DNA of 64,000 nucleotides from Acidobacteriota bacterium (GTDB lineage Bacteria; Bacillota; Syntrophomonadia; Syntrophomonadales; DTU052), in assembly GCA_050259595.1 (NCBI GenBank), contig JBLNAX010000013.1, forward strand, positions 11,364 through 75,363. The letters run 5' to 3'. The notes beneath the pieces were generated by a model. The model did not search any database. It worked only from the letters and a program-made list of their open reading frames with translations, and was not told where the DNA came from. Both the position numbers and the translations under genes were made by a program. Shown one piece after another: positions 2,245 to 53,097 of the stretch. How positions within the stretch are numbered: position 1 is the stretch's first letter; the number at the start of each line of letters is the position of its first letter.

Positions 2245-3525
2245 GTGTCCACATTAGTATTGATGGGCGCCCAGTGGGGCGACGAAGGCAAAGGCAAAAT
2301 AACAGATTTTCTGGCTGAACAAGCAGATTATGTAGTAAGGTATCAAGGCGGAAGTAATGCCGGGCACACAGTTGTAGTCGGCAGTGATAAATTTCAGCTG
2401 CACCTGATTCCATCCGGTATTCTGTATCCAGAAACAGTATCGGTAATAGGCAACGGTGTGGCATTAGATCCGGTTATATTGTTGGAAGAGTTGGATGGCT
2501 TAAAGGAGCGGGGGGTGGACATCTCCAAGCTCAAGATCAGCAGCCGTGCCCATGTGCTTATGCCATACCATAAGACCTTTGATGAATTGCAGGAAGTGGG
2601 ATCCCGTAAACTGGGAACCACCAAACGCGGTATAGGACCTTTATACGCTGACAAGATCAGTCGTACTGGTTTCCGGGTTATTGATATGCTGGATGACCGC
2701 TATTTTCCAGAAAAACTCAAACTGATCGTTGAAGAGAAGAATACCATACTGGAAAAGATTTATGATCAAAAGGGTTTTGATTTCAAGCAAATGCTTGACG
2801 AGTTTAAATTCTATGCAGAGCGCATGCGTTCAATGGTGGTTGATACATCGCTGCTGATCAACCGCGCAATCGATTCTGGTAAGCGGGTGTTGTTTGAGGG
2901 AGCTCAGGGGACATTGCTCGACATTGATCACGGTACATATCCTTATGTAACATCTTCTCATCCAGTAGCTGGCGGGGCTTGTGTTGGCGCCGGTGTTGGC
3001 CCGACTAAGATCAATAGGGTCTTGGGGATCGTTAAGGCATACACTACCCGGGTGGGCGATGGACCTTTCCCCACTGAACTGCATGATGATGTCGGTGAGG
3101 CTATCCGTAAACGCGGTGATGAATTCGGTACTACCACCGGGCGCCCCCGGCGCTGTGGTTGGCTCGACACCGTGGTTCTTCGCTATGCAGCGCGGGTCAA
3201 TGGCTTGACCGATATTGCGATTACCAAGCTGGATGTTTTGGACGAATTCGATAAGATAAAGATCTGTGTAGCTTACCGCTACAACGGCAAACTGCTCGAA
3301 GATTTTCCGGACAGCCTACAGGTTTTGGATGAATGCGAACCGGTCTACATCGAAGTTGACGGCTGGCGGGAAAGTCTGGAAGGCATCACAAAGTATGATG
3401 ATCTGCCGGGCAATGCCCAAAGCTATATCGAGCAGATAGTCAAGCTGACCGGGGTCAACCACTGCATGGTGGCGGTCGGTCCAGACAGAGCCCAGACCAT
3501 AGTAACGAATAGTCTGTTTGACTAG
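2245..3525 (+). CDS. purA: adenylosuccinate synthetase
   Basis: GTG start. QWGDEGKGK P-loop, the GIGP, TTTGR and KLDVLD motifs, 426 aa. Confidence 0.95.
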   Translation: MSTLVLMGAQWGDEGKGKITDFLAEQADYVVRYQGGSNAGHTVVVGSDKFQLHLIPSGILYPETVSVIGNGVALDPVILLEELDGLKERGVDISKLKISSRAHVLMPYHKTFDELQEVGSRKLGTTKRGIGPLYADKISRTGFRVIDMLDDRYFPEKLKLIVEEKNTILEKIYDQKGFDFKQMLDEFKFYAERMRSMVVDTSLLINRAIDSGKRVLFEGAQGTLLDIDHGTYPYVTSSHPVAGGACVGAGVGPTKINRVLGIVKAYTTRVGDGPFPTELHDDVGEAIRKRGDEFGTTTGRPRRCGWLDTVVLRYAARVNGLTDIAITKLDVLDEFDKIKICVAYRYNGKLLEDFPDSLQVLDECEPVYIEVDGWRESLEGITKYDDLPGNAQSYIEQIVKLTGVNHCMVAVGPDRAQTIVTNSLFD

Positions 3526-3580: not shown

Positions 3581-3657
3581 GGGTGATTAGCTCAGCCGGT
3601 TAGAGCGCTTGCCTCACATGCAAGAGGCCGTGGGTTCGAGTCCCTCATCGCCCACCA
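3581..3657 (+). tRNA. tRNA-Val (anticodon CAC)
   Basis: Cloverleaf with 7-bp acceptor stem GGGTGAT/ATCGCCC, anticodon stem CTTGC/GCAAG, loop CTCACAT, T-loop TTCGAGT and encoded CCA. One T-T mismatch in the T-stem. Confidence 0.8.
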
Positions 3658-5326: not shown

Positions 5327-5403
5327 GGAGTTGTGGTGTAGTCGGTTAACATACTGGCCTGTCAAGCCAGAGACCGCGGGTTCGAGTCCCGTCAACTCCG
5401 CCA
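5327..5403 (+). tRNA. tRNA-Asp (GTC)
   Basis: Acceptor GGAGTTG/CAACTCC, anticodon stem CTGGC/GCCAG with loop CTGTCAA, T-loop TTCGAGT, GCCA end. Confidence 0.88.
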
Positions 5404-5407
5404 TTTT

Positions 5408-5483
<76 letters not shown>

Positions 5484-5489
5484 TTATGA

Positions 5490-5564
5490 GCGGGATTAGC
5501 TCAGTGGTAGAGCATCGGCTTCCCAAGCCGAGGGCCGCGGGTTCGAATCCCGTTTCCCGCTCCA
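5490..5564 (+). tRNA. tRNA-Gly (CCC)
   Basis: GCGGGATTAGCTCAGTGGTAGAGC..., anticodon stem TCGGC/GCCGA with loop TTCCCAA, T-loop TTCGAAT, TCCA end. Confidence 0.85.
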
Positions 5565-5600: not shown

Positions 5601-5738
5601 ATGGGTAAACACGTTAACACAATCGTTGCGCCGGTACTTAAGAAAGGCGAAAACACCAACTGCAGAGAATGCCAGGCATCATGCCAATCAGCCTGCAAAA
5701 CATCATGCACAGTTGGCAATCAAGTATGTAAGAAATAA
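5601..5738 (+). CDS. scfA: SCIFF (six cysteines in forty-five residues) ribosomal peptide precursor
   Basis: 45-codon ORF MGKHVNTIVAPVLKKGENTNCRECQASCQSACKTSCTVGNQVCKK. It has exactly six Cys in 45 aa with the CxECQxSCQSACKTSC core. Strong RBS AAGGGGTGAG 6 nt upstream of the ATG. It is below the ORF-track length cutoff. Confidence 0.85.
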   Translation: MGKHVNTIVAPVLKKGENTNCRECQASCQSACKTSCTVGNQVCKK

Positions 5739-5795
5739 ACCCGTCCGACTAATGACAAAAGCGAATCTCTGCGTTATTAGAAACCCCCGTTTGAC

Positions 5796-6000
5796 GGCGA
5801 GCTGTTTCGCCTAATGCCGATGGAATCGAATCTGAGGCTTGCCGACAGATGAGCAGCGGCCAATCAACGTACTCATCAAAACGCCTGACGGCGCAGTGTC
5901 GCGCCAAATGCCGTAGGATCGAATCAGGCGCTTACAACTGATGAGCTACGGCTAATCACGGGGTTTCCTAATGCCTTGACCTTCACTCTTGTCATCAGCC
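5796..6000 (+). repeat. 2.3 tandem copies of a ~94-nt structured repeat (hairpin + AATGCCG + GGAATCGAATC-like block), possibly decayed tRNA fragments or a structured RNA
   Basis: Unit A at 5796 (GGCGAGCTGTTTCGCC TAATGCCGATGGAATCGAATCTGAGGC...GATGAG...CTCATC) and unit B at 5890 (GGCGCAGTGTCGCGCC AAATGCCGTAGGATCGAATCAGGCGC...CTGATGAG...TCATCAG). A partial third copy starts CCTAATGCC at about 5968. Confidence 0.6.
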
Positions 6001-6015
6001 TGATTGGTTAGTAAC

Positions 6016-6047
6016 GTAACCCGTGTAACGCGGGTTTTTTCTTTTTT
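6016..6047 (+). terminator. Rho-independent terminator ending the tRNA-SCIFF-repeat unit
   Basis: AACCCGTGTAACGCGGGTT followed by TTTTTCTTTTTTT. Confidence 0.85.
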
Positions 6048-6262
6048 TGCTGTGGGACAGATGTGTTCCGCTGGGCTAAACTGTTATCCGATGATGGATA
6101 GTTAGTTAAAAAGAGGGAAATAGCCAGTTTGTAGCGAATAGACAACAAAAATATAATCACACGAGCTAGCTTTCTTTGAAGTAATCATTTCGACCGCTCT
6201 TCTTGTTTTATTTGTTTTCCTGAGAGGCTTACGGAACAAAATCATATCCGGGGGGTTTATTG

Positions 6263-8875
6263 ATGAGCGATAGCCAGCAGGTCGTTGGCCACCTAACGCG
6301 TCAATACAGTATCAGGACCCTGGTTCTTTGCGCTTTGGGCAATGTGTTCTTTGGCTCTTTGTTCTGCATCTGGTATCATGTTGCGGATTTGCAGACCTGG
6401 ATACTTGTTGTTGTGGCAGCCATGGGCGGCGGCGTGGTTACAGCCGCGATCACGGTGAAGCTCAACATCAAGAGGTTCTTTGTGCCTATGGGGTTGATGC
6501 TGCATAATGTAAGTACAGTCGCTAAGGGTGATTTGAGGGATAACCTGTCCCAACACCATTTTGAGACGATGGATATCATGCGCGATGCACTGAGTAAGAT
6601 GGACACGGAAATCGTTAGATTGGTTTTTATGGTAACAGCTATTACGGGTGTAGTCGAGCAGTCGGCCAAACAATTAGGCGATGAGACGACTTCGACTAAT
6701 AATGTAGCTAGGGAGGTTTCACTGGCTATCGCTGAAGTGGCCAAGGGCGCCGCCGACCAAGACCTGGCGCTTCGCCAAATCGTCGAGGAGACCGAACGGA
6801 TAATAAGTAACATCAATATAATCGAAGAAGAGTCCAAGCAGCTTGCAGTAGGTTTTGAACAGGTCAAGGGCAGTATCGATGAAGGCTCTAAAGCTATTGA
6901 CCAGCAGCATGAGCGCTTGGAAAGCAACAGGCTGGTGATCAAGCAGATCAACCAGGCCATAACTGATTTGGCTCATAAGTCGCAAGAAATTGGCAATATC
7001 ATGGAGACCATTTCGGAAATAGCTGAGCAAACTAACCTGCTGGCCTTAAATGCATCTATTGAAGCGGCTCGCAGCGGCGAGCGCGGTCGCGGCTTTCAGG
7101 TCGTCTCTCAACAAGTGCGGAAATTGGCTGAAGAATCAGCACGGGCTGCGGTGGAAACCGGCAAGCTGACCGAAGGCATTAAAAAGAGTATACTGCAGGT
7201 CAAAACCGAAGCGCATGTGGCCGAAGAATCGGTCAGAGGGCAGGAGGAAGCCATCGAAGATAACCAGAAAGCCATTAAATCGGTTTTCACCAATATTCAA
7301 CAGATATTGGGCAGCCTTTTCAGACTGTCCGATCAGATTACCGATATTTCTAAATCGATCAATGATATGCTGGTCTCAGTGAGTCATGTTCGCGATGTGA
7401 CCGCAAAAACTTCCGATGGGGCCAATAAGATATCCACTACCGCCACCCGCCAGGCTGGGATTATGGAGCAGATCAAGGGGAAATCGATCGTCCTTTTACA
7501 TGATCTGGTTGAAGAATTAAAACAGACTACCAGCAAGTTCTCATTGCCGAAAGACTTGCAATTAGAAAAAGGGGCGGAGATAAAGCCCTTGAACCTGGAT
7601 GAATTAAAAGCGGTTGCCAAGCATTATCGAATCAAAACAGTTGTTTTTGCCGGGATCATGGGAACCGTTCTCTTCTCCTGGATCATTGCCCTGGTTGGGC
7701 AAGTTAATAATACTGAAGGATGGATCAAAGCTATTATTTGTACTGCGGCATCAGGAACGATTCTGGCCATCATTTCTACCTCCAATAATATAAAGGATTT
7801 CATTTTCCCAACGGCGGTTTTGGTAGAGTTTGCTGATGGTGTAGCCCAAGGTAATCTGAACCGCAACATAGATCAGCAGACAAGAATGGGTAAGCTGGAA
7901 ATGATCAAGGTCGAGTTTAATAACCTGCTTTCGGAAATGCGGGCCATTGCCAGTAATGTAAGAGACCACTGTATCGAGCTCCATGACGAAGCAGCCAAGA
8001 CTGTGGATATGGCTAATGAAACCTCTGTCAATGCTCAAGAGATAGGCATCACGGTGGGAGAGATCGCTCAAGGTGCTACTGACCAGGCAAGTGGTTTAAC
8101 AGATGCTTCGGCTGAACTTAGTCACATATTTAGCCATCTGGACTCCATAATGGGAACCATTTCACAGTTGACGCAATTCTCGGCAGAGACAGAGAGCACA
8201 GTTGACAATGCCTCACAAAATGCTGCTGTTCAAAAGAACAAAGTTGAACAAAATATGGGAGCCATCAATAAGGTGGCTGATGCAGTACGCGACCTCGAGG
8301 AAAAGTCAGCAGCGATCGGTCAGATAGTCGAGGTTATAACCACCATTGCTAGCGATACCAACCTATTGGCCCTGAACGCGGCTATTGAAGCGGCTAAGGC
8401 TGGAGTCGAGGGTCGGGGATTTGCAGTGGTAGCCAGTGAGGTGAAGAAATTAGCTGAAGAAACACTGGGTGCTGCCCAGAAGATATATGATTTGATAGAG
8501 GATATTCAAACCGGGACCAGAAAAGTAGTATCCGACATGGAGAATGCGCGCCAGGCCTTAAAGGACCAGGTCAAGGCGGTATACTTCAGTGAGCAGGTTC
8601 TGGAACAGGTCAATACACAAATGGGACCGATCAATATCAAGACTCGTGAATTGATCCAGAACTGCAACATAATGAATGGCGCCACCCAGCAGATCGCCCG
8701 AGATATCGAGAGTATCGCGGCGGCTAGCCAGGAGACGGCTGCCTCATCGCAAGAGGTTTCCGCTTCATCAGAAGAACAGGAGAGATTAGTGGAAAGCATG
8801 AAACATAATATGGAGCAGTTCGCAGTTCTCACAGACAAGCTTTATCGCCGGCTCTCCCGGTTGAACCTGGCCTAA
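6263..8875 (+). CDS. methyl-accepting chemotaxis protein with two complete TM-linker-MCP signalling modules (double MCP)
   Basis: Two copies of the MCP signalling core ([25 protein letters not shown] at about aa 255 and [25 protein letters not shown] at about aa 695). Each follows a hydrophobic pair and an xDGDLRE / AQGNLN linker. ATG at 6263 follows GGGGGG. Confidence 0.85.
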
Positions 8876-8897
8876 GTAAGTTAATTGAAGATTATTA

Positions 8898-8925
8898 AAA
8901 GAACCCCATTTGGGGTTCTTTTTTA
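8898..8925 (+). terminator. Rho-independent terminator
   Basis: GAACCCCATTTGGGGTTC followed by TTTTTT. Confidence 0.85.
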
Positions 8926-9097
8926 TGGAATCAGAACACATTGTCGTTGATTTTCTTTAATTGCTAGACAATTTATTTTCCTATAGAAGGTAATTTGTAA
9001 ATAAATAGAGAAATATACGCATATCTGCGTAATTTACCTTTTGGAAATTGTAATTTTATAAATGATTTCATTTGTGTTTCGAAGAGGAGGCAAAGAC

Positions 9098-11719
9098 ATG
9101 AATGATAGCCGGCAGCAAGTAGCTCGGTTGATTCGTCAGTATAAATATGTTACGCCTGTAGTATGCATGCTTCTCAATATTCCCTGGGGATTGCTCTTAT
9201 GTTGGTGGGCTGGTATCACTGGGGAGCATCGCACATACACGGTCATCATGGCTATGGCTGGCGGTATAGTAATAGCGTTACTGGTCATCCCCCTTAATTT
9301 AAAAAGGTTTTTTAAACCAATCAGCATTATGTTGGATCATGTTATAAATGTTGCCGATGGTGATTTGCGAGAAGATCTGGAAAAGTACGATTTCGATCAT
9401 TTGAATTTTATGAGAGATGCGCTGAACCGCATGGTGTTTGAGACCAGGCGGCTTGTTTTAATGGTCAGTGTCATCAATGGCAATGCCGAAACTAGCGGTA
9501 CCACACTGCGTGCGGAAGCCGAGAACACCAGTGTAGCGGCGTCCGAGATCGCTCGAGCTGTCAGTGAAGTGGCCAATGCCAATGGCGAGCAGGACCAAGC
9601 CCTGCAGTTGATCATTACGGAAACTGACCAAATAAGTACGATTGCTGAGCGTATTACTGGTCAGGCCCTGGCACTTGTTACAAATCTTGATGAATCTAAG
9701 GTGATTGTGAATAATGGTGTGGAGATGGTGCAGCAGCAGAAACAACACATGCTGACTAACCGCAGAATTATCAATGAGATAAATAAAGCCATATCAGATC
9801 TTTCTGTTAAGTCCCATGAAATAGGCGAAATCATGCAGGCCATTTCAGAAATAGCCGCACAGACAAATCTTTTGGCGTTGAACGCATCGATCGAGGCGGC
9901 ACGCAGTGGTGAACGCGGGCGTGGATTCCAGGTGGTAGCCCAGCAAGTCCGAAAATTAGCCGAGGAATCAGCTCGTGCGGCAGTCGAAACCGGAAGCTTG
10001 ACCGAGAGTATCAAAAACAGTATCAAGCAGGTAGTATTTGAAACGAAGGTGGCTGAGGAAACGGTCCTGGATCAGGAGGTAGCTATTGGCGAAAGCCAGA
10101 CGGTGATCAGTCAGGTCATGGATGATATTGGTGTCATTATTGCTGACATCAACCTGCTGTCCCAGGGTGTTGAAGAAATAGACTCGGCAATCAATCGTAT
10201 CGAGACCACCGTTCGGGACACTTCGGCGGTAACCTCACAAAACACGCAGTCATCACGGGAGATTGCTCTTACTGCTGACGAACAGGCCCGTTTGATGGAC
10301 AAATTTAAAATGGGTTCAAATTCACTAGGGGGACTGGTTCAGGAGCTCAAGGAGCAGGTAGCCAAATTCAAACTACCTGCTGGTTTTGACTGGAATAATG
10401 AAGTGGAATCCAAACTAGTCAGTGATGAAGACCTTAAAAACATCGCTAGAGTTTACCGCAAGAAAACAGTTATTTTATCAGGTGTGGCGGGCATGATCAT
10501 CTTTGCCCCTTTATTATATGGAGTAAGTGGTAAGCCTATATTAGCTGGCTTGGATACAGTTACCTTGATTAAGGCGACCATAATAGCTTTTATGTCAGGC
10601 TCGTTAGCTGCAATATTGTCGGCAACCAAGAATATCAAAGGCTTTATAATGCCCATGGGGGTAATCGCCAAATATGCAGACGCCATAGCACAAGGGGATC
10701 TCAGCCAACAGATTGGACCAGAACATAAAATGGGTAGCATAGAGTTCGTCCGTAATGAATTCAACAATCTTATTCAACATCTGGATCAAATCTCCCAAAG
10801 CATGAAAGACTGCTGTGTGCGCCTGCACAATGAGGCTGGTGATGCTCAAGGACTCGGTAATGAGACTGCTGTCACCGCCCGGCAAATGGCTACCAGTATC
10901 AACGAAATCGCACAAGGCGCTACTTTCCAAGCCCAGGGTATGATGGAAGCATCGGAGCAGGTCAATGAATTGTTCAGTTCACTGAAAAACATTGAAGAGT
11001 TCACAGCTATACTGTCAGTCCATTCCACAGAAGCGGCAGAAGTGGTGGAAAAGGGAGTCGCTAATACAACCGTTTTGAGGTCCAAAGCCGAACAGAATAT
11101 GGGGGCAGTTAATCGTGTAGCTGCTGCCGTTCGTGATCTAGAGGATAAATCGACTGCCATTGGGCAGATCGTTGAGGTTATCACGGCGATTGCTACTGAC
11201 ACCAATTTGCTTGCCCTTAATGCAGCTATAGAGGCTGCCCGGGCTGGCGAAGAAGGTCGGGGCTTCGCGGTCGTAGCCAGTGAGGTTAAGAAACTGGCTG
11301 AAGAGACACTGGCTGCGGCAGAAAAGATTTACGAACTGATTGGGCAGATCCAGAATGGGACAGAAAAAGTGGTCGGTGATATGGAAGCAGCCCGGAAATC
11401 ATTAGAAACTTTGGTGCAGGCCGTTTTCACCAGTCAGAATGTCATGGAACAGGTAGCCAACCGGCTGGGTCCTATCAGAAAAGAAACCCTTGTGATCATA
11501 GATGATTGTCAGGTCATGAACTCATCCACCGGGAGAATAGCCGGAAGCATACAAAGCATTGCGGCTGGTAGTCAGGAAACAGCAGCTGCTGCTGAGGAGG
11601 TACTGGCATCGACCGAGGAACAGGAACGGTCGGTAATCGGCGTTAACCAGAACTTGGAACAGTTTGCCGACTTAACCAATAAGCTTTATAGCCGTCTGCT
11701 CAAATTAAAGGTCAGCTAG
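9098..11719 (+). CDS. methyl-accepting chemotaxis protein, tandem paralog of the upstream double MCP
   Basis: Same two-module architecture as 6263-8875 ([44 protein letters not shown] is identical in block). Likely start is the ATG at 9098 after GAGGAGG; the ORF opens at 9062. Confidence 0.85.
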
Positions 11720-11744: not shown

Positions 11745-11776
11745 AAAAGCCCACCATTAGTGTGGGCTTTAATTTT
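11745..11776 (+). terminator. Rho-independent terminator
   Basis: GCCCACCATTAGTGTGGGC followed by TTTAATTTT. Confidence 0.75.
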
Positions 11777-11794
11777 GGCTTGGGGATATTAGGT

Positions 11795-11868: not shown

Positions 11869-13260
11869 GTGGACAGCTTGACCCATCTCAAGAATTATAA
11901 TTTCTCGGCCAATATTCACCTTGTTGAGATTCAGGGCCAGTACCTGTTGTTAGATGTCAATTCAGGAGCGATCCATGTGCTCGATGAGGCTGCAGTCAGT
12001 TTTGTTAAGGGTTTACAGGAGAACGGCGGAGATTGGGATGCAGCCCGCACATCTTGCCTGCTCCACTTTGCTCCCCAAATAGTAGAAGAAATCGAGCAGG
12101 AGCTGCGGGAATCCATGAACAGCGGTTCTTTGTTCTCTGTGGAAGATGACTTGTCCACATTCAGTTATGAAGGAGCCGTTCCCAAAGCCTTGTGTCTTAA
12201 CGTGGCCCACGCCTGCAATATGCGCTGCAAATACTGTTTCGCTGGCCAGGGGACCTTCGGGGAGGAAGCCATGCTGATGAGTCGGGAGACTGCTTTCCGG
12301 GCTGTGGACTTCTTAATTGCAGCAAGCAAAGAACGCCGACACCTAGAGATAGATTTCTTTGGCGGTGAACCGTTGTTAAACTTCGATGTGCTAATAGCCA
12401 CTGTGGACTATGCGCGTCAAGAGGCAGCCCGTTCGGGTAAGGAGGTCGCACTGACCCTGACCACCAACTCACTGGACCTGGATCAGTCGGCCAGCCAGTA
12501 TCTGATCGATGAAGGGATCGCCATCATTGTAAGCCTAGACGGCCGGCAGTCAGTCAACGACTACATGCGTCCGGCGGCTGATGGCAGTGGTACCTACGAA
12601 CGGGTGCTGGCCAATATTCGCCGGATAATAGATATGAGTCCAGCAAGCTACTATGTCCGTGGCACCTTCACCGCACACAATCTGGACTTTGCGGAGGACT
12701 TCCGACATCTGGCTGAGCTCGGATTTACCAACATATCCCTGGAACCGGTTGTGGGCGGAGAAACTGGAATCTTGATTCAAGATCAGCACTTGCCGCATAT
12801 AATGAAAGAGTACGAGAAGATGGCAGATACTTTGCTGGAAATGCGAGGCCAAGGTCGGCATATAAATTTCTTTCATTTTAATCTGGATATGAACCGTGGG
12901 CCCTGCTTATCCAAGCGCTTGACGGGCTGCGGGGCCGGTGTTGAGTATCTGGCCGTAACTCCGGCCGGTGATCTTTATCCCTGCCACCAGTTCATCGGAC
13001 ACCAGGAGTTTCGCATAGGAAGCGTATTGCATGGTGTACAAAATCCGGAGCTGGTGAACAAGTTTGCACATAATACTCTGTTAGATAAAAAATGCCATAG
13101 ATGTTGGGCGCGTTTCTTCTGCGGGGGCGGCTGCCATGCTAGTGCGTTCTTTGCTAACCGTGATATAAGCGTGCCGAATGAGATAGCCTGCCAGATGCAT
13201 AAGAAGCGGTTGGAATGTGCATTTTACCTGGCAGCCAAGACAGGAGGCGGTTCTGATTAA
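11869..13260 (+). CDS. scfB: radical SAM/SPASM peptide maturase, probable SCIFF maturase
   Basis: CNMRCKYC (CxxxCxxC) rSAM cluster motif, FFGGEPLL and a C-terminal Cys-rich SPASM region (CGAG...CHRCWARFFCGGGC...C). About 100 aa of N-terminal leader-binding-like domain (IHLVEIQGQYLLLDVNSGAIHVLDE). 463 aa, the typical SCIFF-maturase size. Confidence 0.75.
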   Translation: MDSLTHLKNYNFSANIHLVEIQGQYLLLDVNSGAIHVLDEAAVSFVKGLQENGGDWDAARTSCLLHFAPQIVEEIEQELRESMNSGSLFSVEDDLSTFSYEGAVPKALCLNVAHACNMRCKYCFAGQGTFGEEAMLMSRETAFRAVDFLIAASKERRHLEIDFFGGEPLLNFDVLIATVDYARQEAARSGKEVALTLTTNSLDLDQSASQYLIDEGIAIIVSLDGRQSVNDYMRPAADGSGTYERVLANIRRIIDMSPASYYVRGTFTAHNLDFAEDFRHLAELGFTNISLEPVVGGETGILIQDQHLPHIMKEYEKMADTLLEMRGQGRHINFFHFNLDMNRGPCLSKRLTGCGAGVEYLAVTPAGDLYPCHQFIGHQEFRIGSVLHGVQNPELVNKFAHNTLLDKKCHRCWARFFCGGGCHASAFFANRDISVPNEIACQMHKKRLECAFYLAAKTGGGSD

Positions 13261-34913: not shown

Positions 34914-36317
34914 TTAATTCGTATCCCCGATCTCCTTAACTAACTCCTCGATCCTTTTTGAGCGGTCGGGCTCGATCAGTTTCATGAAGCTGATCAGTTG
35001 ATTGATCCATTCTCTTTCTGAATTGGGTGTTTGGGCCAGGAGTTCAAGCAATGATCCATCACTGGACCTCAGTTCATCGGCAACGATGGTCCATACTAAT
35101 AGGGACAGTTCAACATCACCAAGCGATTCATAAACTGTTTGATATTCTTCATCAAATACACAATCGGCTGCCAGGATCTCCATGAAGTCATCCAGTGATC
35201 TTACGTTGGTCAATATAATATCGGCCTTTTTCACTGCATTAGGACACTCCAAAATGAGTTCGATCAAGTCTCGTAATGCTTCGTCATTCATGATATCGCC
35301 CTGTTCAAACGTAGCCCGGGGATGCGCTTTGGCTGGTTGATCTGTTATCAACAGCTTGTTGAGACTGTCCAGCTGCAGCGCGTTGATCAGTCTTGGGGTC
35401 AGGCTTTTTTCATATTGGCGTATATAGCTGCAAATATCAGGGGCAGTGATGGCCAGCTCTTCGGCCAGCTTGTCAATGGCTTTGTTTAGTACTACGGGGA
35501 TGTCCCTGGCACTGATCTTGTTTAATTTTTCATTTAGGATCGCACATTCGCCTGTGGAAATGGCTAGTATTCTCGGATCTCTTCCCAGCAACAATGAAAA
35601 GATCGCATTGGTCAGCACGATTTCAAATATGTTCAGCAGGAATTCGGGATAATCGATTCGATATGTTCTTCCGTAGTTTTCAAGAAGCATATCCACTTCA
35701 GATCTTTCGAACAGGTTACAAAACTGATTTTCCGTGCTTAGTGTTCGAATATATTGGCTGATATAAAAGATACCCCGCTGATTCATGGGGTCAGAGGCTA
35801 ATGGATAATCGATATCCGCCGTGGTTTCATGGGCATTGAACTGGATATTGTAATTAGCGAAAAATCCAGGTATCCCCTCGCCCACTGTTGAATTATAGGC
35901 TACTATTTTAGTTACAAGTTGTTCGGATCTGGTGGCAATAAACAGTTTCTTGGTTTCATCGAAACACGACCGCACCAGACTCAGCCCTTTTTTATAAATG
36001 TCATGTATGCTGGTGGTCTTCAATTCGGCAAGACACTCTTCTGGTGTGGGAAAACTCATACAGTAAGCATCAACACAATATGAGATCGATAACAGTAGAT
36101 TCTGCGCTGTTTCTACCTGTACCGAACTGCTCTCGCCGCTGGTATATTTAGTAACCACGTCTTTCAGTACATCCATGATTTGGGTGTGGATGTCTTCGAC
36201 ATCGGAATCAGCAATGAGCTTGGCTTGACAAGCGGCATCCAGCAGAGAAAACAGGTATTCATTGGGGTCTAAGTCTTCCGCCCATTTGGGGGCAATCCTG
36301 GCCAAACGGTGTTCCAT
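34914..36317 (-). CDS. conserved hypothetical protein (467 aa), operonic with the upstream 157-aa protein
   Basis: Soluble, no recognisable catalytic motif. The stop of the upstream gene at 36320 abuts its start at 36317. Confidence 0.55.
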   Translation of the reverse strand: MEHRLARIAPKWAEDLDPNEYLFSLLDAACQAKLIADSDVEDIHTQIMDVLKDVVTKYTSGESSSVQVETAQNLLLSISYCVDAYCMSFPTPEECLAELKTTSIHDIYKKGLSLVRSCFDETKKLFIATRSEQLVTKIVAYNSTVGEGIPGFFANYNIQFNAHETTADIDYPLASDPMNQRGIFYISQYIRTLSTENQFCNLFERSEVDMLLENYGRTYRIDYPEFLLNIFEIVLTNAIFSLLLGRDPRILAISTGECAILNEKLNKISARDIPVVLNKAIDKLAEELAITAPDICSYIRQYEKSLTPRLINALQLDSLNKLLITDQPAKAHPRATFEQGDIMNDEALRDLIELILECPNAVKKADIILTNVRSLDDFMEILAADCVFDEEYQTVYESLGDVELSLLVWTIVADELRSSDGSLLELLAQTPNSEREWINQLISFMKLIEPDRSKRIEELVKEIGDTN

Positions 36318-36319
36318 GT

Positions 36320-36793
36320 CTACACCTCGTCCTCATCCGATATTTTGCCGTAATAACGCCCTTGTTTGACCTCCTGGATAAGGCTTTCCAGTTCCCGGCT
36401 GATCAGAAGATCTACCGCTCCGCAACAGCGGCTGTCAAAGCGTTCCTTCATTATCTGTATAAGATCTGTATCGCCGATTTCGTCGGCTGTTTCGTTTTTC
36501 ATGTAGTAAAAGAGCTCCACTAGATCACATATGGTTTCTGTATAATCGATCTGGTTGATATATGGCGAAGTGCAAAAAGCCTTAATTATCTCACTAATAA
36601 CGTCAAAACCAAGCTCAAAACGGCCTAGATTCTTCAGGGCATCGTTTCTGGCTTCAATGATCGCCAGAGCATCTGTTTCAGATAACATTAGTTTGTAGTC
36701 TTTGGATACAATATTGGTTTGAGTTATCTGAGTGACGATAGAGCGTTTCATCACGCTGTTCGTGGGGTTGAAGAATTTCATAATGTTGGACAT
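36320..36793 (-). CDS. conserved hypothetical protein (157 aa)
   Basis: First gene of a two-gene minus-strand operon. The RBS GGGGGGAATTA lies upstream. Confidence 0.55.
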   Translation of the reverse strand: MSNIMKFFNPTNSVMKRSIVTQITQTNIVSKDYKLMLSETDALAIIEARNDALKNLGRFELGFDVISEIIKAFCTSPYINQIDYTETICDLVELFYYMKNETADEIGDTDLIQIMKERFDSRCCGAVDLLISRELESLIQEVKQGRYYGKISDEDEV

Positions 36794-38053: not shown

Positions 38054-38539
38054 TTAGTACCCCATAGCTTTAAGAATCCTGGATAATGTATGCAGGCGTT
38101 CGCTGAGCAGCTCATCATCATTGTTAAGTGCCTGGCTGAACAACTTTATATCATCATCGATTTTTTCATTGTCTGTGCAAATAGCCACGGTCATAGCATC
38201 ACCCTGTAAACCCACTCTGTCGATAACCGGTTTTGCGGGATCGTACAACTTTTCATAACGGTATGCCTCTCGAAAATGGAGTTGAGTGCGGCAAACCAAA
38301 ATGGCTAGATCAAGAACACGGTGTAGCGGCATCTCTTCGGATTGTCTGGACCACTTTTCTCCGGTATATCTCCACACCTTGGCGGAAATGTCCACCTTGC
38401 CCCGGTCATTCCACTGGGCTAATCCTAATGAAAGGCCTTTCGCATCAGAATTATAGGCATATCTGCCGTCAACATTCTCGTAGTTTTCTGATACTATGAC
38501 CGGCTTGTGTTTTAAAGTAGTTGGTATTTTCATAATCAT
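38054..38539 (-). CDS. hypothetical protein
   Basis: 161-aa ORF at the head of a three-gene minus-strand cluster. Confidence 0.45.
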   Translation of the reverse strand: MIMKIPTTLKHKPVIVSENYENVDGRYAYNSDAKGLSLGLAQWNDRGKVDISAKVWRYTGEKWSRQSEEMPLHRVLDLAILVCRTQLHFREAYRYEKLYDPAKPVIDRVGLQGDAMTVAICTDNEKIDDDIKLFSQALNNDDELLSERLHTLSRILKAMGY

Positions 38540-42608: not shown

Positions 42609-42863
42609 CTCCTTTGCGCGATATTTGATACTTATCTTAAGTCTAATCGTTGGAGATCAATAAAGAAATCCTCCCACGGGGTGATTTCTGTTCAAAGGAA
42701 AACATTATAGTCTTTTTATCGAAGCGATAAGACGTGTTGAAGAAGGGGCGTTGCAGGCTATTAATATAAAGGATTTGAAGTGAATTGTGTCGAAAGGTGT
42801 CTTGACAGTGGTGTTTTCTCTTGTTTTTGGCAAGTGCAATTTCATATTATGGAGGCGAGCAAT

Positions 42864-44576
42864 ATGTTAGCGTTTAAGTCTATTCGTTCAAAGATAATGG
42901 TCGCTCTGATCCTGACCTGCTGTTTGGTAAGCATGGTTGGTGGAACAGCCTACTATTACTATGCCAAATCTCTAATTACTAAGGATATTGGAAAGAACGC
43001 TATAGATCTTGCTAATGCCGCTTCTGTGTATGTTGATGGAGATTCACTACTATCCATCAAGTCTGAATCAGATCCCGTCTACATTCAACAGGTATCCCGA
43101 TTAAGGTCATTCCAAAAGAGGTCGGTCACGAAAATAAAATTCATATATACCCTTGCTGACTCAGGTAAAGGTAAAACAAGATTCGTTTTGGACGCGACAG
43201 AGGGTGAGGACCATTCGCCATTGAACATGGAGTATGACCTGCGAGAAGATATGAAACCCGCTTTTAACGGAATTCCTAGTGCCGATAAACAAGAATATAC
43301 GGACCAATATGGCAGTCAATTAAGTGGTTACGCACCTATTAAGGATTCGACCGGTAAGGTAGTAGGTATTGTTGGCGTCGATATCGATGCGAAAAACATT
43401 AGTGATGCCAAAACGACTACTGGATGGATCATTGCTGGTTTGGTCTTTGTTTCGCTTTTGCTTGGTTTGCTGGTGGCGTTTATCATTTCCAACATGCTGG
43501 TGCGTCCCATTTTAACATTGGATCAAGGTTTTACAGCTTTGGAACAGGCGGGAGCTGATCTTACAAATCGTATTCAGGTTTCAACCGGTGATGAGCTGCA
43601 GCATTTATCAAATTCGTTTAACAGTTTCTTAGGTAATCTACACGACATGATCGTCAATATAGCCGAATCCAATCAACAGATCGAGAAAGCCAATAATCAG
43701 CTAAGGGAAGCAGGTCGGCAGGTCGCTGATATCACTCAGCAAACCTCAGCTTCTACCCAGGAGATAGCCGCGGGGATGCAGGAGGTTTCGGCCACTACGG
43801 AAGAAATCACCGCAGCAACTGAGGAAATCGCAGCAACTCTAGAAGCAACTTATGCGGAAGCTGACAGCAACCGGCTTAAAGCGTCCGAAGTAGAAAACCG
43901 GGCTTTAAAAGTGCAGAATGAAGCAACTCAAGCTGCCAAACAAACCAGAGATCTTTATGGATCGATCCAAATAAGGCTTAAAGAGTCGATCGAGGGAACC
44001 AGAGTAGTGGAAAGTATAGCCGATATGGCATTGCAGATCGGAACGATCGCTGATCAGACGAACCTGCTGGCGCTTAATGCGGCTATAGAGGCGGCGCGTG
44101 CTGGCGAGCAGGGGCGAGGCTTTGCAGTGGTAGCCGATGAAGTACGCAAGTTAGCCGAAGATACTGCTAGCACGGTGCGCAGTATTCAGGAACAAACGGT
44201 GCAGGTAAAGAGTTCGATCCAGATACTGGTTGACAGCGCAAAAGACATCCTGGAGTTCATCAATAATAAAGTTCTGAGCGATTACGCATATATGGAGGAA
44301 ATCGGACGGCAATATAAGGATGATGCTAACATTATCGTTGATTTTTCGGAACAAATGACCAGTGATGTAGGCAAACTCAGCCATGCTGTTGACGAGATCA
44401 ACAGATCCATTGAGACTCTAGCATCGACAGTAGCCGAGGCCACCAGCGGCTCGCAGGCCATCGCTCAGGAAGCTGAAGAAGCCGCCCAGATTGCATGCGA
44501 GATCAATGATGATTCACAAAACGTTTCTGATCTTACATTAAAATTATCCAGGCTGGTGGACAGGTTCAAATTATAG
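42864..44576 (+). CDS. methyl-accepting chemotaxis protein with extracellular Cache-like sensor domain
   Basis: TM, periplasmic domain, second TM, HAMP and an MCP core ([36 protein letters not shown]). ATG at 42864 after GGAGG; the ORF opens at 42780. Confidence 0.85.
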
Positions 44577-52062: not shown

Positions 52063-53097
52063 CTACCATTTGCATTTGTGTTCTTCGGCACTGCCTACTA
52101 CACGGTCCAGGATGATGGCCTGCCCATCGTCAGTCAAAAGTTGCCCAGAAAAATGGCCGACTACCTGGTACAGCTCGGTGCTTAAAACAATGACGCTGGT
52201 CTTGCCGATCCTGCTGTAGACTGGCTCAAAATCCAGACGCACCCGCTCCGAGGTCACACTTCTTATCTTCCAGGGTTTCATGATATTTATTAGATCATAT
52301 TCAAAGAGCACATCATCTGATATCTTGTGTAACCGACCGTCAACTACTATGGCGTTCTCTGTCATCCCGGTCCCGTCTGTCCATTTACTGCCTAGATTCA
52401 AGCCTGTAACCTGCCCGCCGGATGCAATTCCTGAGGCGGTGGCCCAGTTCCAGCCGATACGGTAAGGCCAGATCCCCCGGGCATAGTCCAAAGATGCAAA
52501 ACACATCTTGGGGTCGAGCTTATACTGTTGGGTACCCACTCGAATACACCCTTCCGCAGGTAGGCAGTTCTGCTTGGATGTGAAATGAAACAAACGATCG
52601 CTCCAGGGTATCACGGCATTCAGGGTTTCATGTCCCGGAGGTCGATGGATCATGACATTCGCTTCAATACCGGCACCCATGACATGCAAATGGGTATTGT
52701 TTTCCTGGCTAGTAAATGCGATTTGCAGGCTGCTGTTTTTGTATTCCATACTATCAAGTATGCTGTTCGGCATTTTTAAACCCCTAGAAAACGGCAGCTC
52801 AACAGTTTTTTCAATGTATAGTTTGGAGTTGAGATCAAGAAAGTACATGAAAGCCTGGCCAAAGTAATCAACATCATCGATGGCCGCTGCAAAAATGCAC
52901 TCCGGGTGGCAGATAAACCAGTAGTTCCAGCGTTTCTTGCGCGGCCAGCGGGTGGGTAGATTGCATTCCACCAGGGGTTGCCTGGCCCAACCCCGGCAGT
53001 CTCCAGCTAGTCTGCCATTGTCATCACATAGCCTGGTCGGCCTTGTCATTTCTGGTTCACGCAGTTGTTTATCAGCCATTCTGATTATACTCCTCAT
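52063..53097 (-). CDS. hypothetical protein (possibly DUF2804 family)
   Basis: 344-aa soluble ORF. The family assignment comes from memory of size and context only. Confidence 0.4.
   Translation of the reverse strand: MRSIIRMADKQLREPEMTRPTRLCDDNGRLAGDCRGWARQPLVECNLPTRWPRKKRWNYWFICHPECIFAAAIDDVDYFGQAFMYFLDLNSKLYIEKTVELPFSRGLKMPNSILDSMEYKNSSLQIAFTSQENNTHLHVMGAGIEANVMIHRPPGHETLNAVIPWSDRLFHFTSKQNCLPAEGCIRVGTQQYKLDPKMCFASLDYARGIWPYRIGWNWATASGIASGGQVTGLNLGSKWTDGTGMTENAIVVDGRLHKISDDVLFEYDLINIMKPWKIRSVTSERVRLDFEPVYSRIGKTSVIVLSTELYQVVGHFSGQLLTDDGQAIILDRVVGSAEEHKCKW

Follow-up and report, generated by a model that had tools for sequence, protein, structure and literature searches.

Double chemoreceptors built from two membrane-anchored signalling modules, in fused and split forms

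Textbook chemoreceptors are symmetric homodimers, and within a trimer of dimers the two subunits of each dimer occupy different environments. The roles of these subunits have so far been separable only through engineered single-chain constructs. Here, two adjacent genes, A and B, are described from a stretch of 64,000 nucleotides (GenBank assembly GCA_050259595.1, contig JBLNAX010000013.1, positions 11,364 to 75,363 of the forward strand; hereafter the window). Each encodes a methyl-accepting chemotaxis protein (MCP) with two signalling modules, called N and C after their order in the chain. What is new here is a set of membrane-anchored two-module receptors assembled from N-type and C-type halves, which occur in fused and split forms. 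They are clearly MCPs, and it is plausible that they represent a natural asymmetric receptor, either single-chain or heterodimeric.

DosM (VC1403) from the Vibrio cholerae cluster I/F9 is a double signalling domain receptor that has been called unusual (PMC7534058, PMC9321776). It is a soluble extended rod with a tip at each end, which bridges two baseplates of a cytoplasmic array, and it is encoded in F9 che clusters together with a triple-CheW protein. DosM and the A and B proteins share one design, in which a single polypeptide holds a pair of MCP signalling domains but lacks a dedicated sensor domain. In the laboratory, the single-chain receptor Tsr~Tsr was built to make the dimer subunits non-equivalent, and it was functional when the connection had at least about 19–22 residues (Mowery, Ames, Reiser and Parkinson 2015, PMC4692393). 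The natural single-chain MCP-like proteins named by Mowery et al. are soluble ones only (PMC4692393). Literature searches for natural heterodimeric or membrane-bound double or single-chain MCPs returned nothing beyond DosM.

Module anatomy of the A and B proteins

In the Pfam search, MCPsignal (PF00015) matched two stretches per protein (E = 7.9e-67 and 2.5e-64; 34.6-bit cut-off), and the tip motif NLLALNA[SA]IEAA[RK].G..GRGF is complete twice in each, at residues 258 and 700 of A and 257 and 703 of B. Each gene product is confirmed to contain two complete modules, each made of a membrane hairpin of two helices, a HAMP-like domain and an MCP signalling hairpin of 44 heptads, and all four hairpin tips are intact. 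A first-pass annotation of this DNA had proposed two signalling cores per protein, and the search upheld it: neither protein was reduced to a single genuine signalling domain. The named MCPs of NCBIfam were matched only partially and below the cut-off. The lengths of 871 and 885 amino acids (aa) that the same annotation had assigned are those of the open reading frames (ORFs), which lie on the + strand as co-directional neighbours at 6260..8875 and 9062..11719; the proteins have 870 and 873 aa. The likely start of gene A is the ATG at 6263, on which the start context and independent gene callers agree, and that of gene B is the ATG at 9098, which has a GGAGG 7 nt upstream and is also the choice of independent gene callers. 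Gene A is present on two independent contigs, and its product shows 100% identity to the database protein P0001.

Four strongly hydrophobic helices per protein (Kyte–Doolittle 1.7–2.5, conserved in the family) form two hairpins. As had been described from the sequence, each signalling core is preceded by one such pair, with an outer loop of only ~4–8 residues, and then by a HAMP-like helix–loop–helix. With four transmembrane (TM) helices, both signalling hairpins are cytoplasmic and project the same way, parallel and side by side. The HAMP assignment differs in strength between modules. Against the Pfam HAMP families (PF00672 and PF18947), only the C module of B passes a cut-off (HAMP_2, 26.4 vs 24.3 bits), and the other three are sub-threshold or undetected. 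Nevertheless, the hallmarks F72, P75 and GDL of the N module and P516 and G530 of the C module are family-invariant, with a P...GDL helix–loop–helix following the TM hairpins, while the canonical DE.G.L of the second amphipathic helix (AS2) is replaced in both modules. The arm lengths are constant across the family at 189/147 residues for N and 190/151 for C, and the HAMP connector of the C module is one residue longer than that of the N module family-wide (arm lengths 190 vs 189).

The two halves of one protein match each other by BLASTP at E = 3e-44 to 1e-36 in a collinear, nearly gapless alignment far above chance, and all four modules can be aligned end to end almost without gaps. Against Bacillaceae and Paenibacillus MCPs, which we take to be members of the 44-heptad (44H) class, no gaps were needed from the HAMP domain to the C-terminus. 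Counting from F278, both arms are hydrophobic at heptad phases 0 and 4, and a bundle spanning residues ~119–427 around E273 amounts to 44 heptads. The 44H length class reportedly comprises 44 heptads, or 308 residues, arranged symmetrically about the tip, with no indels between members, and by their sequence the modules belong to it. The heptad class that the first-pass annotation had left to be assigned is accordingly that of 44 heptads around the tip.

A model of protein A was built with AlphaFold2 (AF2) from a 21-sequence alignment, with a mean predicted local distance difference test (pLDDT) score of 86 and a predicted template modelling score of 0.48. Its helices span residues 2–38, 43–87, 101–270 and 272–423, followed by a coil at 424–444 and helices at 445–478, 484–528 and 543–865; those of the signalling hairpins (101–270, 272–423, 543–865) have a pLDDT of 85–93. 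The HAMP region is modelled as helix–coil–helix in both modules. A Foldseek fold search of the Protein Data Bank matched MCP structures (3zx6, 2ch7, 1qu7 and 8c5v) and long coiled coils, and is uninformative on N:C packing. Between the end of the N bundle (423) and the hydrophobic core of TM3 (~457), the connection consists of a ~21-residue coil and a ~12-residue helix; about 28–34 residues separate the N bundle end from TM3.

Each gene joins two complete minimal MCPs head to tail, and this is visible even at the junction itself. The internal N module retains the [KR]F.[LIV] tail that closes free-standing MCPs, and the linker of A aligns with the N-terminus of the protein that precedes TM1. 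The AF2 model also contains an isolated β-bridge between the HAMP connector and this tail, at residues ~90/~427 and ~531/~868 of A. The bridge at ~90/~427 persists when the N module is folded alone, which makes it intra-module. If the model is right, such a bridge may explain the conservation of the [KR]F.[LIV] tail in MCPs, including the internal junction here.

Table 1. Coordinates of genes A and B, their modules and their terminators (nucleotide positions in the window; aa, residues of the protein)
Feature	Position	Strand	Details
Gene A, double MCP	6263..8875	+	870 aa; identical to P0001, NCBI MGE5415411.1
A, N module TM1 (aa 17-38) and TM2 (aa 43-67)	6311..6463	+	~4-residue outer loop; Kyte–Doolittle peaks 1.9, 2.3
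A, N module HAMP-like region (aa 68-119)	6464..6619	+	F72, P75, G89-D90-L91 family-conserved; AF2 helix–coil–helix 43-87/88-100/101-
A, N module signalling hairpin, 44 heptads (aa 120-427)	6620..7543	+	tip E273; tip motif nt 7034-7096
A, inter-module linker (aa 428-455)	7544..7627	+	coil 424-444 (AF2 pLDDT 54-74), then amphipathic helix into TM3
A, C module TM3 (aa 456-481) and TM4 (aa 485-506)	7628..7780	+	Kyte–Doolittle peaks 2.4, 1.7; AF2 445-478, 484-528
A, C module HAMP (aa 507-561)	7781..7945	+	weak Pfam HAMP_2 match 502-560; P516, G530 invariant
A, C module signalling hairpin, 44 heptads (aa 562-870)	7946..8872	+	tip motif nt 8360-8422, canonical GFAVVA.EV
A, C module, two consensus methylation motifs (aa 819-835)	8717-8767	+	motif scan
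Gene A, intrinsic terminator	8900..8925	+	AGAACCCC-ATTT-GGGGTTCT then T5; by direct reading of the sequence
Gene B, double MCP	9098..11719	+	873 aa; P0003, MGE5415412.1; ORF open from 9062
B, N module	9146..10372	+	TM1/TM2 9146-9295; HAMP 9296-9451; hairpin 9452-10372; tip motif 9866-9928
B, linker and C module	10373..11716	+	linker 10373-10456; TM3/TM4 10457-10624; HAMP 10625-10789
B, C-type signalling hairpin	10790-11716	+	tip 11204-11266; methylation motifs 11561-11611
Gene B, intrinsic terminator	11746..11780	+	9-bp stem then T-run (pattern scan); end also given as 11770

The terminator of gene A had escaped the pattern scan. With one terminator behind gene A and another behind gene B, the two genes are probably separate transcription units. 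A perfect 16-bp palindrome, TACGCATATCTGCGTA, lies at 9016–9031 in the AT-rich intergenic region between A and B, ~70 nt before the start of gene B. It occurs once in the window, a frequency not above chance, and could be an operator.

State of the modules, their duplication and the split gene pairs

The functional state of the modules was judged over canonical columns, of which there are 76 with at least 75% conservation among 90 ordinary MCPs. Of these, 59 are retained in N modules and 63 in C modules, and the tips are nearly invariant; on this comparison both modules look functional. Both tips are under strong purifying selection. In ~50 N-type sequences, positions N258–R270, G277, F278 and V281 of the tip do not vary, and yet the signature of the N-type tip, NAS...AR[ST]G...GFQVV.Q(Q/E)V, departs from the NAA...ARAG...GFAVVA.EV of C-type modules and ordinary MCPs. 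The methylation consensus is [ASTG]2-x2-[EQ]2-x2-[ASTG]2. Strict motifs of this form number two per C module (starting at 819 and 826 in A, 822 and 829 in B), and the same scan of the N modules of A and B found none. Across the family, the mean number of motifs per module is 0.78 for N and 1.45 for C, as compared with 2.55 in other MCPs. Positions that are conserved in both module types but in different residue classes are concentrated at heptad positions e and a (15 of 22, vs ~6 expected), and N modules are bulkier in the core than canonical MCPs at several layers.

The A and B proteins are paralogs with 47.5% identity over their full length. Module by module, the N modules of A and B share 46% and the C modules 51%, while any N and any C share 25–30%. 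Neighbour-joining trees were computed for ~44 double proteins with 100 bootstraps, using 12 minimal TM-hairpin MCPs and 7 classical MCPs as outgroups. All N modules fall into one clade (bootstrap 100) and all C modules into another (91), and the internal topologies of the two are mirrored. The N and C clades group together relative to the outgroup MCPs with a bootstrap of 65, or 79 when P0159 is included. The mirrored clades, together with the gap between 25–30% and 46–51% identity, place the internal duplication long before the duplication that produced A and B. Both module types therefore go back to a single old duplication of a minimal MCP, whereas A and B were duplicated far more recently. 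The order of events put forward in the first-pass annotation, internal duplication before gene duplication, is therefore retained, and the phylogeny of the modules it had called for resolves them into the N and C clades. As a refinement, the N/C split is ancient and family-wide rather than particular to A and B.

The double-MCP family is rare, lineage-restricted and previously undescribed. Only ~24 full-length relatives were found among 5.8e9 clustered proteins, all of 867–905 aa and all from metagenome-assembled genomes (MAGs) or raw assemblies, and an exhaustive profile search of 1.84e9 representative proteins gave ~40 full-length clusters. A sister MAG, with a PurA 93% identical, carries orthologs of the A/B type. 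Scanning genome contigs with the family alignment was unproductive, as the universal tip motif let ordinary MCPs swamp the result; the long matches L011, L023 and L068 proved to be ordinary tandem single-MCP genes.

The profile search further recovered free-standing proteins of ~430 aa that match the N half or the C half only, at 400–530 bits. These singles begin with Met, close with natural ends of the KF.L type and fall within the N clade or the C clade according to the half that they match. Wherever the context could be read, an N-type gene is directly followed by a C-type gene. Junctions of 4–19 bp were read in three lineages. P0151 is followed by P0145 after 19 bp (TAA, AAGGGGG, ATG, so that the second gene has its own Shine–Dalgarno sequence and ATG) on contigs from several samples; P0149 by a C-type gene after 4 nt (L088); and P0157 by a 435-aa C-type gene after 15 bp (TAG, AGGAGGG, ATG) in the Syntrophomonadaceae MAG GCA_028698695.1. 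Two further pairs are deduced, P0153/P0143 from accessions that follow one another in the MAG of the window and P0155/P0152 from their place on one 2.8-kb Logan contig. P0147 (426 aa), at first sight an N-type single, is a contig-end fragment and was not counted as a split form. As the singles are adjacent in N-then-C order, the fused genes of the window can be regarded as the Rosetta-stone form of an ordered, obligate pair. The sequences surveyed show that N-type and C-type modules always co-occur with N first, either fused or as adjacent genes. The deepest branches are fused in both subtrees, which slightly favours fission rather than fusion as the origin of the split forms.

One MAG (MGE5415411 to MGE5418308) holds at least 10 paralogs of the family in three tandem arrays, as read from accession numbers. 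The first array is the adjacent pair P0001 and P0003, which are the window genes A and B, and the second is the adjacent pair P0009 and P0004. The third is a five-gene run, MGE5415999 to MGE5416003, on a 13.9-kb contig that L086 covers in part, and consists of the N-type single P0153, the C-type single P0143 and the doubles P0012, an 871-aa gene and P0011, so that a single genome carries split forms right next to fused ones. Further paralogs in this MAG are P0014, P0015 and P0017, each of more than 500 aa. P0026 (505 aa, in the MAG of the window) comprises an N module and TM3 and then ends, and may be a truncated or frameshifted double MCP.

Possible arrangements of the two modules

The reading we favour is an intramolecular pseudo-dimer, and we regard it as about evenly balanced between right and wrong. 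The hairpins of the N and C modules would close up into one four-helix bundle, TM1–TM4 would form another in the membrane, and the two half-HAMPs would make one HAMP, much as in a naturally occurring Tsr~Tsr; where the genes are split, an N:C heterodimer would take the place of the single chain. N and C are inferred to act as one functional unit on a 44H-type CheA/CheW array, at the baseplate of which they would dock as an obligate pair. Such a unit would be asymmetric by nature: of its two subunits in A and B, only C retains consensus methylation sites, and N carries substitutions at tip positions that are otherwise near-invariant. As the proteins have no ligand-binding domain, any input would have to enter through the part in the membrane or the HAMP, through the bundle in the cytoplasm or through a partner, which is speculative; the first-pass annotation had suggested that such receptors may sense membrane or cytoplasmic cues. 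A more specific form of the proposal, namely a natural obligate heterodimeric receptor with one methylatable subunit and with tips specialised for the inner (trimer-axis) and outer (CheA/CheW-facing) positions, is advanced tentatively, as somewhat more apt to be wrong than right.

The single N:C bundle is preferred because a covalently adjacent hairpin has an overwhelming effective concentration, because the fixed 1:1, ordered pairing of N and C is otherwise unexplained, and because Tsr~Tsr, of like layout, signals with a connection of at least ~19–22 residues where the present one has ~28–34. Several observations weigh against it. The N module folded alone reaches a pLDDT of 86.1, equal to that of the full-length protein, and AF2 confidence is uninformative on N:C contact. 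No volume covariation was found at layer-matched N/C positions, although the intra-module control was also weak (-0.07, -0.04), so that this comparison is uninformative. The layer-sum volumes of N and C relative to canonical MCPs correlate at r = +0.24 and show no compensation. Flank charges (e-e and g-g) are type-specific, with R223–E328 in N vs hydrophobic pairs in C; the test is ambiguous, and contacts of the homotypic or intra-hairpin kind account for these pairs no less well than heterotypic ones. Further, both tips are almost fully canonical, whereas a full division of labour between inner and outer positions predicts more relaxation. A scan of 41 of the 49 listed ORFs of at least 150 aa detected no che genes in the window, the other eight being shadow ORFs in larger genes or the two chromate-transporter ORFs, and a search of the window for a sigma-D-type promoter consensus was likewise negative; it is therefore homology that links A and B to chemotaxis. 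The related loci examined likewise had no conserved neighbour gene or che gene.

The charge pairs bring in the main competitor, a homodimer with twin bundles, in which N pairs with N' and C with C' to give two ordinary dimers tethered by two linkers, with eight TM helices. The tether would fix a 1:1 ratio and may seat both dimers in the same or neighbouring trimers of dimers, stiffening or coupling the array. Both tips are canonical enough for inner and outer roles, as in homodimers; type-specific e-e salt bridges (R223–E328 in N, R216–E335 in C) and their hydrophobic counterparts covary within module type; heterotypic packing compensation is absent; and engineered single chains also swap strands between molecules (PMC4692393). 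However, the covarying e-e pairs are equally explicable as intra-hairpin contacts, the effective concentration of the adjoining hairpin favours intramolecular pairing unless selected against, and mixed trimers need no fixed 1:1 ratio, which leaves the strict N-then-C order at 25–30% divergence unexplained. Two tethered homodimers are thus possible but on the doubtful side.

The lack of a ligand-binding domain, with outer loops of 4–8 residues, could also point to a DosM-like scaffold without input that nucleates or stabilises arrays for ligand-binding MCPs such as that at 42780–44576. The only described double-signalling-domain receptor, DosM, is a scaffold, and 98% of its homologs are sensorless (PMC7534058, PMC9321776); the bulkier core residues of the N module would fit a stiffer bundle. 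Such a role is nonetheless unlikely, given that the conserved HAMP and the methylation motifs of the C module point to signalling and adaptation, that at least 10 diverged paralogs per genome are hard to justify for a scaffold, and that the tips point the same way, which makes the bridging of two baseplates impossible, unlike in DosM. The N modules of A and B have no consensus methylation sites, and at tip positions that hardly vary elsewhere they show A-to-S/T, A-to-Q and E-to-Q changes. This might suggest instead that one of the modules, N being the likelier, has decayed into a relic that no longer signals and that each protein is one functional receptor. We consider this very improbable: the N tip motif does not vary, the N clade is clearly under purifying selection, the module retains 59 of 76 canonical positions, and the N type also occurs as a free-standing gene. 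Least credible, to the point of near dismissal, is an assembly or sequencing error that deleted a stop codon and merged two adjacent MCP genes. Split N-then-C pairs with junctions of 4–19 bp do exist in relatives, but assemblies from NCBI, Logan and ENA show the fused frame in ~40 diverged clusters, gene A was recovered from two independent contigs, and linker length, along with part of the linker sequence, is conserved.

Surroundings of the locus and relation to known receptors

PurA places the host, an uncultured member of the Bacillota, close to Syntrophomonadaceae. The PurA of the window is 65–73% identical to proteins of Syntrophomonadaceae, Syntrophomonas and Thermosyntropha, and the content of the window (DUF2232–purA–tRNAs, Cu_amine_oxidN1 proteins, SCIFF) fits Bacillota. 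The phylum labels in the NCBI MAG records of P0001, P0002, P0007, P0254 and P0257 (Acidobacteriota, Candidatus Saccharibacteria, Ignavibacteriales, Solirubrobacterales and Chitinophagales) contradict one another although the PurA proteins are 76–93% identical to that of the window, and the labels look wrong. Four tRNA genes lie upstream of the SCIFF/MCP locus, Val-CAC at 3581–3657 and a cluster of Asp-GTC, Phe-GAA and Gly-CCC at 5327–5564 (+). They stand near purA (2245–3525) and the DUF2232 gene, in surroundings typical of Bacillota.

Genes A and B sit exactly between a SCIFF ranthipeptide precursor at 5601–5738 (+; 45 aa, six Cys; TIGR03973, 64.5 bits vs a cut-off of 50) and the SCIFF radical SAM maturase at 11869–13260 (+; TIGR03974, 499 bits vs 425), 6.1 kb from the precursor. 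The corresponding genes, scfA and scfB, are normally adjacent, and the MCP pair looks inserted into the SCIFF locus. Just downstream of the precursor, and upstream of a terminator at 6018–6036, is an imperfect tandem repeat of ~93 nt (5792–5975, +; two copies, with blocks 76–82% identical). It had no match in Rfam even at E <= 1 and could be a structured 3' untranslated region or a leader element. The window also encodes a conventional single-module MCP with HAMP and MCPsignal domains at 42780–44576 (+, 598 aa), the ~200-residue N-terminal extracytoplasmic region of which matched no Pfam sensor family. Its signalling domain is roughly the length of a double-MCP module, and it could share an array with the double MCPs. 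Conserved genes of unknown function are present at 34914–36793 (-), 38054–38539 (-) and 52063–53097 (-), comprising a DUF6179 and DUF6323 pair, DUF6530 and DUF2804.

For receptor biology, the family, if it is a natural N:C dimer, would be a ready-made system for dissecting the role of each dimer subunit. Its two subunits have diverged, yet they are invariably encoded together and in many cases linked covalently, and most methylation motifs lie in one of them. In syntrophic Bacillota, receptors without a sensor have greatly expanded through this family, which also adds, beside the soluble DosM, a second architecture for double-signalling-domain receptors that is membrane-bound and has parallel tips.

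Several known receptors resemble A and B in part. The minimal TM-hairpin MCPs of ~417–430 aa (for example P0186, P0192, P0208 and P0218; also P0159) have the same architecture as each A or B module, with two TM helices, a short loop, a HAMP domain, a long signalling hairpin and a KF.[LIV] tail, but they are single-module genes outside the N+C clade and are not known as obligate ordered pairs. The closest sequence relatives outside the family are 44H MCPs of the Bacillus type (McpA/B/C and TlpA/B class; P0040, P0060 and P0027), which share the tip and methylation-helix motifs of the C modules and align with the family without gaps from the HAMP domain to the C-terminus; these proteins, however, have one module each and large periplasmic dCache or four-helix-bundle sensor domains. 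The archaeal and bacterial Htr-type transducers (HtrI and HtrII) have two TM helices with little or no outer domain and receive a lateral signal within the membrane from a partner protein, a sensory rhodopsin encoded next door. Unlike these transducers, the double-MCP family has no conserved partner gene alongside.

By its published description, DosM is set apart from A and B, which have four TM helices, a HAMP domain per module, tips in the same direction, 44H modules, a Bacillota host and no che genes nearby. The four-TM order of subunit 1, linker and subunit 2 is that of Tsr~Tsr, and the natural linker is of adequate length. However, Tsr~Tsr is artificial, with identical subunits and periplasmic domains, whereas A and B are natural and combine paralogous modules that are 25–30% identical and asymmetric in their methylation sites.

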